A DNA stretch of 30,593 bases from an uncultured Acidimicrobiaceae bacterium (GCA_964443425.1 CAYUDA010000001.1:1-30593), one strand, 5' to 3'; shown: positions 20,926 to 21,614, counted from the stretch's first letter. The notes: a model not told the origin generated them from the sequence alone. Translations and numbers: made by a program.

Positions 20926-21476
20926 CGTCCCTCCCGTTCCTGGCCGGCCTCGGGCCGGTCGTCGATCCAGACGCCCTCGGCGCCGTCCACCTCGTCGATC
21001 TTCACCATGACCCGCTCCGTCAGTGAGGTCGGCATGTTCTTCCCCACGTAGTCGGGCCGGATCGGGAGCTCACGGTGCCCACGGTCGACCAGAACCGCCA
21101 GCTGCACCCGGCGGGCCCGGCCGATGTCGGCGAGGGCGTCGAGGGCGGCGCGGATGGTGCGGCCCGTGAAGAGGACGTCGTCGACGAGCACCACGGTGCG
21201 GTCGTCGATCGGACCTGGGATCTCCGTCGGGCCCAGCGGGGTGGTGGGCCGCTGGTCGAGATCGTCGCGGTAGAGACCGATGTCGAGCGTCCCCACCTGG
21301 ACCCCTGCGTCCTCGATTTCGCCGATGAAGGCCCCGAGTCGGGCCGCCAACGGGGCGCCCCGGGTGTGGATGCCGAGCAGCACGACCTCGTCGGCTCCCC
21401 GGTTGTGCTCGAGGATCTCGTAGGCGATGCGCCGCAGGGCCCGCTCGACGTCGTCATCGGTCAGGATGGCACGCAT
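20922..21476 (-). CDS. pyrR: Pyrimidine operon regulator / uracil phosphoribosyltransferase PyrR (184 aa)
   Basis: [78 protein letters not shown] 6 nt upstream. Confidence 0.97.
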
Positions 21477-21550
21477 CGGCAGCCTCCTGGGGAAACGGGG
21501 AGAGGGTGCGCGGGCGGCGCAAACGGGTTCGCGCCTGGCGGCGTCTTCAT
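21461..21550 (-). CDS. Putative 29-aa Pro-rich leader peptide [29 protein letters not shown], overlapping the pyrR start by 16 nt
   Basis: AAGGAG (21561-21556) + 5 nt + ATG directly after the PyrR box. It is out of frame with pyrR and stops at TGA 21463-21461. Not in the supplied ORF track. Confidence 0.5.
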
Positions 21551-21561
21551 CGATACTCCTT

Positions 21562-21595
21562 CCTTTCCGGCTTCACCGAACCGGGCTTAAAGGTT
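21562..21595 (-). promoter_or_regulatory. PyrR-binding RNA element
   Basis: AACCUUUAAGCCCGGUU-CGGUGA-AGCCGGAAAGG. Lower stem CCUUU/AAAGG, UUUAA-containing internal loop, upper stem CCGGUU/AGCCGG, and a hexaloop matching the CNGNGA consensus of PyrR sites. Confidence 0.88.
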
Positions 21596-21605
21596 GGCCC
21601 GGCCG

Positions 21606-21614
21606 ACCATAGCA
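21606..21614 (-). promoter_or_regulatory. Extended -10 promoter (TG-C-TATGGT) of the pyr operon
   Basis: TGnTANNNT about 10 nt upstream of the PyrR box, which would place the box at the very 5' end of the mRNA. Confidence 0.65.

Follow-up and report, generated by a model that had tools for sequence, protein, structure and literature searches.

A putative PyrR-gated leader ORF without an intrinsic terminator upstream of pyrR in an uncultured Acidimicrobiaceae bacterium

For Thermus strain ZO5, Van de Casteele et al. reportedly proposed in 1997 an attenuator that combines PyrR with a leader peptide; PyrR is said to block translation of the leader, and a terminator to form when no ribosome is present. 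For mycobacteria, translational repression by PyrR was reportedly described by Fields and Switzer in 2007. Repression exerted entirely via translational coupling is documented for CsrA and iraD in E. coli (Park et al., mBio 2017, PMC5574718). In M. tuberculosis, upstream ORFs (uORFs) are under riboswitch control at ppe2 (B12 switch; PMC11260477) and at pe20 (Mbox; PMC12810186), and operate by termination–reinitiation or by control combined with Rho-dependent termination (PMC11260477, PMC12810186). For Actinobacteria, a literature search on PyrR with a uORF or a leader peptide gave no result. The pyrR locus described here appears, on comparative sequence analysis, to be a terminator-less relative of the PyrR/leader-peptide attenuators found in related genomes and in Deinococcota.

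The source genome comprises 2.0 Mb in 370 contigs (86 % complete, 69.7 % G+C). A stretch of 30,593 nt from it (GCA_964443425.1 CAYUDA010000001.1:1-30593) is referred to here as the window. The pyr genes lie on its minus strand, as do all features given below, and NCBIfam annotation gives the order aminopeptidase/PepQ-like gene, efp, nusB (21698–22081), a 221-nt gap, pyrR and pyrB. The pyrR gene (20922–21476) encodes a protein of 184 aa (P0001) that scores 245.5 bits with NF003547 (cut-off 230); its best PDB match is 1ufr_A (E 1e-55), the pyr mRNA-binding attenuation protein of Thermus. The pyrR stop codon overlaps the pyrB ATG as ATGA (20925–20922), and a sequence check found no in-frame start codon upstream of the pyrR ATG at 21476. 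A cognate PyrR is encoded beside its candidate RNA site, which precedes the pyr genes, with pyrB directly after pyrR. Two other features of the window may be recorded here. The longest ORF for efp (22078–23058) has 326 aa, of which only residues 141–325 match the family; the true start is probably near 22640, and the N-terminal extension overlaps the upstream aminopeptidase gene. An FMN riboswitch at 4217–4337 (111.7 bits) is the sole Rfam match above gathering score in the window, and other Rfam matches near pyrR (ASpks, frameshift site, mir-650, snoRNA, IRES; E 0.06 to 9) were set aside as noise.

An extended −10 element, TGcTATGGT, is located at 21606–21614. Relatives keep the motif TGCTAnnnT at an equal distance, and transcription would start approximately 5–8 nt before the hairpin that follows. 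One relative (L070) carries a tandem repeat of a 7-nt unit, GCCGTCT, ahead of the −10 element, upstream of the promoter. The hairpin itself (21562–21593) matches positions 5–36 of RF00515 at 23.5 bits (E 0.51) and falls short of the gathering score of 54, as the locus has the binding loop alone and nothing to match the terminator/antiterminator part of the model. It is made up of a lower stem (CCUUU/AAAGG), a 6-bp upper stem and a loop, CGGUGA, of the CNGNGA type, with a fold energy of −10.0 kcal/mol. The CNGNGA loop, the upper stem and a UUUAA internal loop are likewise found in the pyr attenuators of B. subtilis, whereas Bacillus uses alternative antiterminator and terminator structures and no leader translation.

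The 44 non-identical hairpin regions aligned from relatives all share the loop pattern C.G.GA; in their upper stem, 96.2 % of cells are paired and five of the six pairs show double changes. None of 500 shuffles reached the observed level of covariation, and slid controls did not come close either. The loop-closing pair is C-G in the order consensus and U-G in the rest of the genus, the window being the only sequence with U-A. Since no match in a metagenome scan exceeded 65 % identity, the covariation analysis could draw on no further genus sequences. These features point to 21562–21593 as the site at which PyrR would bind. A pattern search of the 86 %-complete genome found no second PyrR hairpin, apart from one spurious match.

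A possible counterpart on the protein side was observed at 21416–21433, where the pyrR codons read RRIAYE. All five genus genomes have RIAYE at this position, the other relatives have RIAHE and one (L023) has RIANE; the same five genus genomes carry GGUUC at hairpin positions 21576–21580, against GGUCC elsewhere. The histidine of RIAHE reportedly matters for the binding of RNA by PyrR of B. subtilis. RIAYE and GGUUC could represent a co-change of protein and RNA, though as a single evolutionary event.

Directly 3′ of the hairpin is a Shine–Dalgarno sequence (SD), AAGGAG (21556–21561; anti-SD duplex −8.9 kcal/mol), 5 nt before an ATG at 21550 that opens a 29-codon ORF (21461–21550; P0002). The ORF is out of frame with pyrR and stops at a UGA (21463–21461), 16 nt inside it. 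The end of the PyrR hairpin (21562) abuts the SD and start of this separate leader ORF, not those of pyrR, whose own SD, AGGAGG (21483–21488; duplex −10.3 kcal/mol), is located 74 nt downstream of the hairpin. The arrangement resembles the mycobacterial one in that PyrR would act on translation initiation, in a high-G+C actinobacterial setting and with no terminator/antiterminator. It differs in that the mycobacterial hairpin covers the ribosome-binding site (RBS) of pyrR itself, and the hairpin here the RBS of an out-of-frame leader, 74 nt upstream. An initial annotation of this DNA had listed the extended −10, the hairpin, the AAGGAG-N5-ATG at 21550, the ORF with its out-of-frame end inside pyrR, the AGGAGG and a CCUCU at 21505–21501. 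All were recovered in place, the frame and end point by translation, and its placing of the PyrR box at a leader ORF rather than at pyrR is supported by comparison and folding.

Open frames of 29 codons are, by themselves, nothing unusual in a genome of 70 % G+C, and for this reason relatives were compared. The comparison covered 30 pyrR loci of the same genus, family and order, one of which, being incomplete (L012), was left out. Five loci (L009, L010, L015, L016 and L027) start pyrR directly after the hairpin, which is exactly the mycobacterial layout; 22 have a separate short ORF after the hairpin; and two (L026 and L029) are unclear. The start after the hairpin has one and the same frame relationship to pyrR at each of the 22 separate-leader loci, although the leaders come in 13 different lengths ranging from 26 to 143 nt. 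The start codon is ATG in 21 of these loci and GTG in one, each after a strong SD. The frame remains open in 21 of the 22 to a stop that ends at +1, +4, +13 or +16 of pyrR, in the contexts TGATG at +1, ATGA or GTGA at +4, and GTGATG or GTAATG at +13, with one leader (L023) keeping its frame for 51 codons through a long spacer. The third frame across the leader is open in five of the 22 loci only. As pyrR coding sequence itself contributes part of the +1-frame stop (many relatives have GTGATGG), what carries information is the frame, its start codon and its openness; at the GTGATG/GTAATG stops, TGA and TAA alternate between relatives.

Two further observations were made on these leaders. In L021, a 12-nt tandem repeat gives GDQA four times, and the leader frame is still kept. 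Additionally, the pyrR frame is stop-free over the whole leader in 17 of the 22 order-level loci, though without a start codon there, which would fit easy switching between fused and separate leaders by small indels.

The five genus genomes do not vary in the leader SD, its 5-nt spacing or the ATG, and the leader frame is open in all of them despite a diverged 3′ half. Outside the genus no conservation of the peptide sequence was found, and the leader peptides are unrelated. Taken together, the comparisons argue that the 29-codon leader is a real frame and not a product of chance, and that the conserved trait is translation to a defined end point, not a peptide product.

The start region of pyrR is itself predicted to be masked. 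A hairpin at 21462–21489 (−13.2 kcal/mol, z −2.70; 4 of 200 shuffles as stable) pairs the pyrR SD and AUG against pyrR codons 3–5, and its 3′ end overlaps the leader stop. In the full-leader ensemble, the SD bases are predicted to pair with 21470–21463 at p 0.97–0.98. This partner out-competes the CCUCU at 21505–21501, to which the initial annotation had assigned the pairing with GGAGG; the CCUCU pairing forms only when the downstream partner is omitted (composite −9.5 kcal/mol). The fold of the whole leader is not more stable than that of shuffles (z −1.0). The prediction of the masking hairpin draws on folding and on five genomes that are close relatives and show no double compensatory changes: the same hairpin is present in L002, and different SD-containing hairpins are present in L003 and L004. 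As its 3′ arm ends at the leader stop, a ribosome translating the leader would have to melt the whole hairpin.

The window and L002 differ from the other relatives in having a strong pyrR SD and a leader stop shifted 15 nt downstream; the former stop site reads cCGAtg in the window against cTGAtg in L003–L005. Most relatives scored have a strong leader SD. Of 27 loci, about half carry a pyrR SD weaker than −6 kcal/mol, as a rule where the overlap is ATGA or TGATG, and this combination would fit termination–reinitiation or coupling in the relatives. The position of the leader stop, overlapping pyrR or just inside it, and the end of the predicted masking hairpin at the same place support a leader that is positioned to couple to pyrR.

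The reading that we favour, with a probability of roughly 60 %, is that the PyrR-gated leader ORF passes the pyrimidine signal on to pyrR and the pyr operon. Because the PyrR hairpin sits on the RBS of the leader and not on that of pyrR, PyrR most likely controls the operon indirectly. At high UMP/UTP, PyrR would bind the 5′-terminal hairpin of the mRNA and block access of the 30S subunit to the adjacent leader SD and AUG, so that the leader would go untranslated. With the leader silent, the pyrR SD and AUG would stay locked with pyrR codons 3–5, and little product would be made of pyrR or of the translationally coupled pyrB; the naked C-rich leader may also allow early termination by Rho. At low pyrimidine levels the leader would be translated, and the ribosome would melt the masking hairpin en route to its stop inside pyrR, exposing the pyrR start for initiation or re-initiation. 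A relay of this kind had been put forward in the initial annotation: leader position, frame, end point and a masked SD are upheld by comparison and folding, and the coupling itself is a step that we infer. Should the masking hairpin breathe in vivo, pyrR could initiate independently via its own strong SD.

By analogy, the logic of the window would match experimental precedents outside the pyr genes. As with CsrA and iraD, an RNA-binding protein would act on the SD of a uORF and the SD of the main gene is sequestered, here by prediction; the iraD uORF stop likewise overlaps the main start codon. The regulator and its motif are different, however, and the leader stop is 16 nt inside pyrR in the window and forms a 1-nt overlap in sister species. 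As at ppe2 and pe20 of M. tuberculosis, a sensor RNA in Actinobacteria would control a small uORF and not the main gene, but the M. tuberculosis sensors are metabolite riboswitches, whereas here the sensor would be a protein-bound hairpin, and the pathways are others.

With the Thermus type, the window shares a PyrR hairpin on the SD of a short leader ORF and pyrR as the first gene of the operon; the leader stop of that type is at or overlapping the pyrR start, and that of the window just inside it. Deinococcota leaders carry a GC hairpin and T-run, giving ..VFF.. residues, so their output would be intrinsic termination. The genus of the window, in contrast, has a hairpin without a T-run, and a C-rich tract and an SD-masking hairpin instead. 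PyrR-gated leaders, usually with a GC hairpin and T-run inside, were found in Tepidiformaceae, Dehalococcoidia, Nitrospirota and an isolate genome of Deinococcota (L064). In essentially every one of 30 sampled genomes of Deinococcota, one or two PyrR-type hairpins are combined with an SD and a leader of 22–40 codons with a T-run, and the leader stop overlaps the pyrR start in at least 19; an intrinsic terminator was found in the leader at 25 of 26 scored loci. Such leaders are thus widespread and the idea of a PyrR-gated leader is less new than the initial annotation had assumed. The logic is already known, and it is the terminator-less version with a masked SD that is new.

Several variants were seen among these distant leaders. 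In nine Dehalococcoidia loci, the PyrR hairpin is followed by a 25-codon leader (MLKHTAIEA...CQFEGRRFFNA) that spans a Bacillus-like terminator and ends two codons inside pyrR; its peptide sequence is conserved, unlike elsewhere. Two tandem PyrR-type hairpins precede the leader SD in Deinococcus-like genomes (L194–L217), and a 21-nt unit is triplicated in the leader of L210 (RPQDALSG three times).

No hairpin followed by a T-run was found in the window between the PyrR site and pyrR, in agreement with the earlier statement that a terminator/antiterminator with a U-tail is absent, and canonical terminator-like sites are not enriched in the window (2 found against 4.4 expected from shuffles). 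The 8-bp hairpin reported earlier inside the leader ORF is present at 21516–21535 (−10.6 kcal/mol, z −2.75). It is located at about the position of the terminator stem of relatives, without a U-run after it, and in the genus alifold the region forms a 6-bp consensus helix with one-sided changes only. Among the order-level leaders, a T-run terminator is present in eight of 22 and absent in 14; the latter include all five genus genomes, of which L005 has a weak ATTCTT tail only.

A C-rich, G-poor tract of 30 nt at 21488–21517, with a (C−G)/30 of 0.5, encodes most of the leader prolines and is a candidate Rho-loading site. A skew of 0.5 is reached by 0.08 % of 30-nt segments of the genome, and a segment of such skew is contained in 0.9 % of random 74-nt stretches; the C-over-G skew of the whole 74-nt leader is unremarkable, within the top 7.4 % of genome segments. 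Peak skew has a median of ~0.3 in leaders without a T-run versus 0.13 in those with one, a contrast that is biased because terminator stems are G/C-balanced. A rho gene is present in the genome, and the tract may recruit Rho. It is a tentative and somewhat doubtful suggestion that, in several high-G+C Acidimicrobiia genera, the terminator has been replaced by a Rho-loading tract plus an SD-masking hairpin. As a joint claim this would have PyrR act on leader translation, and leader translation on both Rho termination and the unmasking of pyrR, the proline-rich peptide being a by-product of the tract. If this three-tier version were true, that by-product of a rut-like tract could incidentally confer sensitivity to EF-P.

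The same features bear on a pure transcription attenuator, which we regard as unlikely. With leader translation blocked by PyrR, transcription would then end prematurely in or after the untranslated leader, either through Rho on the C-rich tract or with the 21535–21516 hairpin serving as a terminator without a U-tract, and pyrR would initiate independently at its own SD. The leaders of relatives hold a canonical terminator, by which termination would be the usual output of the layout, and in the window a hairpin at about the terminator position is followed by a rare C-rich, G-poor tract. Both the presence of rho and the strength of the pyrR SD agree with such an attenuator, as do a Rut site and a Rho-dependent 3′ end reported for pyrR of M. 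tuberculosis (PMC13650167). However, there is no U-run, the C-rich tract is only ~30 nt long, and pure attenuation explains neither the masking hairpin nor why the leader stop coincides with the 3′ end of that hairpin. Likewise, the TGATG overlaps and weak pyrR SDs of the sister species point to translational coupling.

That the leader is a relic or chance ORF, the remains of a decayed leader–terminator, with PyrR acting otherwise, e.g. on 5′-end stability, is very improbable. Loss of the T-run, lack of peptide conservation and the frequency of open frames at 70 % G+C all speak for a relic. The SD, spacing and ATG that do not vary in the genus, the frame that stays open there over a diverged 3′ half, and the same-frame rule over 13 leader lengths argue against it.

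Not supported, and very improbable, is a link to EF-P, as raised in the initial annotation, or to proline supply, whereby stalls at PPG and APP in the leader would tie pyr expression to EF-P activity or proline supply, besides PyrR. Nine of the 29 residues are Pro, including PPG at codons 4–6 and APP; nine or more Pro occur in only 3.9 % of composition-matched shuffles, four of the five genus genomes have PPG or PPPG, and efp lies two genes upstream. Yet one congener (L005) has PKG and no PPG, most leaders of other genera have no PP, those with PP are themselves C-rich, and two or more PP occur in 27 % of shuffles, PP counts being as composition predicts. The prolines coincide with the C-rich tract and can therefore be a by-product of nucleotide composition, much as the caveat attached to the claim, that C-rich DNA yields Pro by chance, had anticipated. 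The placement of efp–nusB next to pyrR is a common gene order in actinobacteria, so the proximity of efp says little. In the alignment of related pyrR upstream regions, the SD, ATG and frame are conserved and the PP motifs, outside the genus, are not. Finally, an assembly indel that hides an in-frame N-terminal extension and makes 21550 the true pyrR start, as considered initially and as the five relatives with pyrR directly after the hairpin might suggest, is excluded: the frame offset is common to five independently assembled genus genomes, contigs from other public runs match 21380–21603 with 0 differences and 0 gaps, a variant strain has 16 substitutions and 0 gaps, and the leader frame is used by all 22 separate leaders.

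On a PyrR tree, in which L012 is an unclassified row, the genus groups (support 86/87) with two other T-run-less leaders and one fused form. Layouts change at least 14 times on this tree and thus appear to interconvert easily; its deep branches are poorly resolved, and the ancestral layout is not readable from it. A further layout was seen at eight loci, from other Acidimicrobiales and a Bifidobacterium breve record, where GGAGG and a GTG come after a variant hairpin (CGUGAAGCGGGUCC.G.GAGGCCCG); from this GTG, PyrR gains a conserved in-frame extension at its N-terminus (MAERERRLTPP.GGVFV). The stretch coding for this extension contains a GC hairpin and T-run, so leader and terminator appear there to be fused to pyrR.

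The PyrR binding loop can accordingly be viewed as a portable module for different outputs. One order holds three wirings, to the pyrR RBS, to a leader ORF with an intrinsic terminator and to a leader ORF without a terminator, and conversions between PyrR layouts are frequent. For annotation, a sub-threshold RF00515 match beside an SD–ATG should prompt a search for a leader ORF, as gene callers miss such ORFs. No new category of regulation is opened. The routes of the relay to be told apart are translational unmasking, Rho, or both, and the terminator-less version would stand alongside the recently described riboswitch–uORF systems of M. tuberculosis as a simple natural case of protein-gated uORF signal relay in Actinobacteria.
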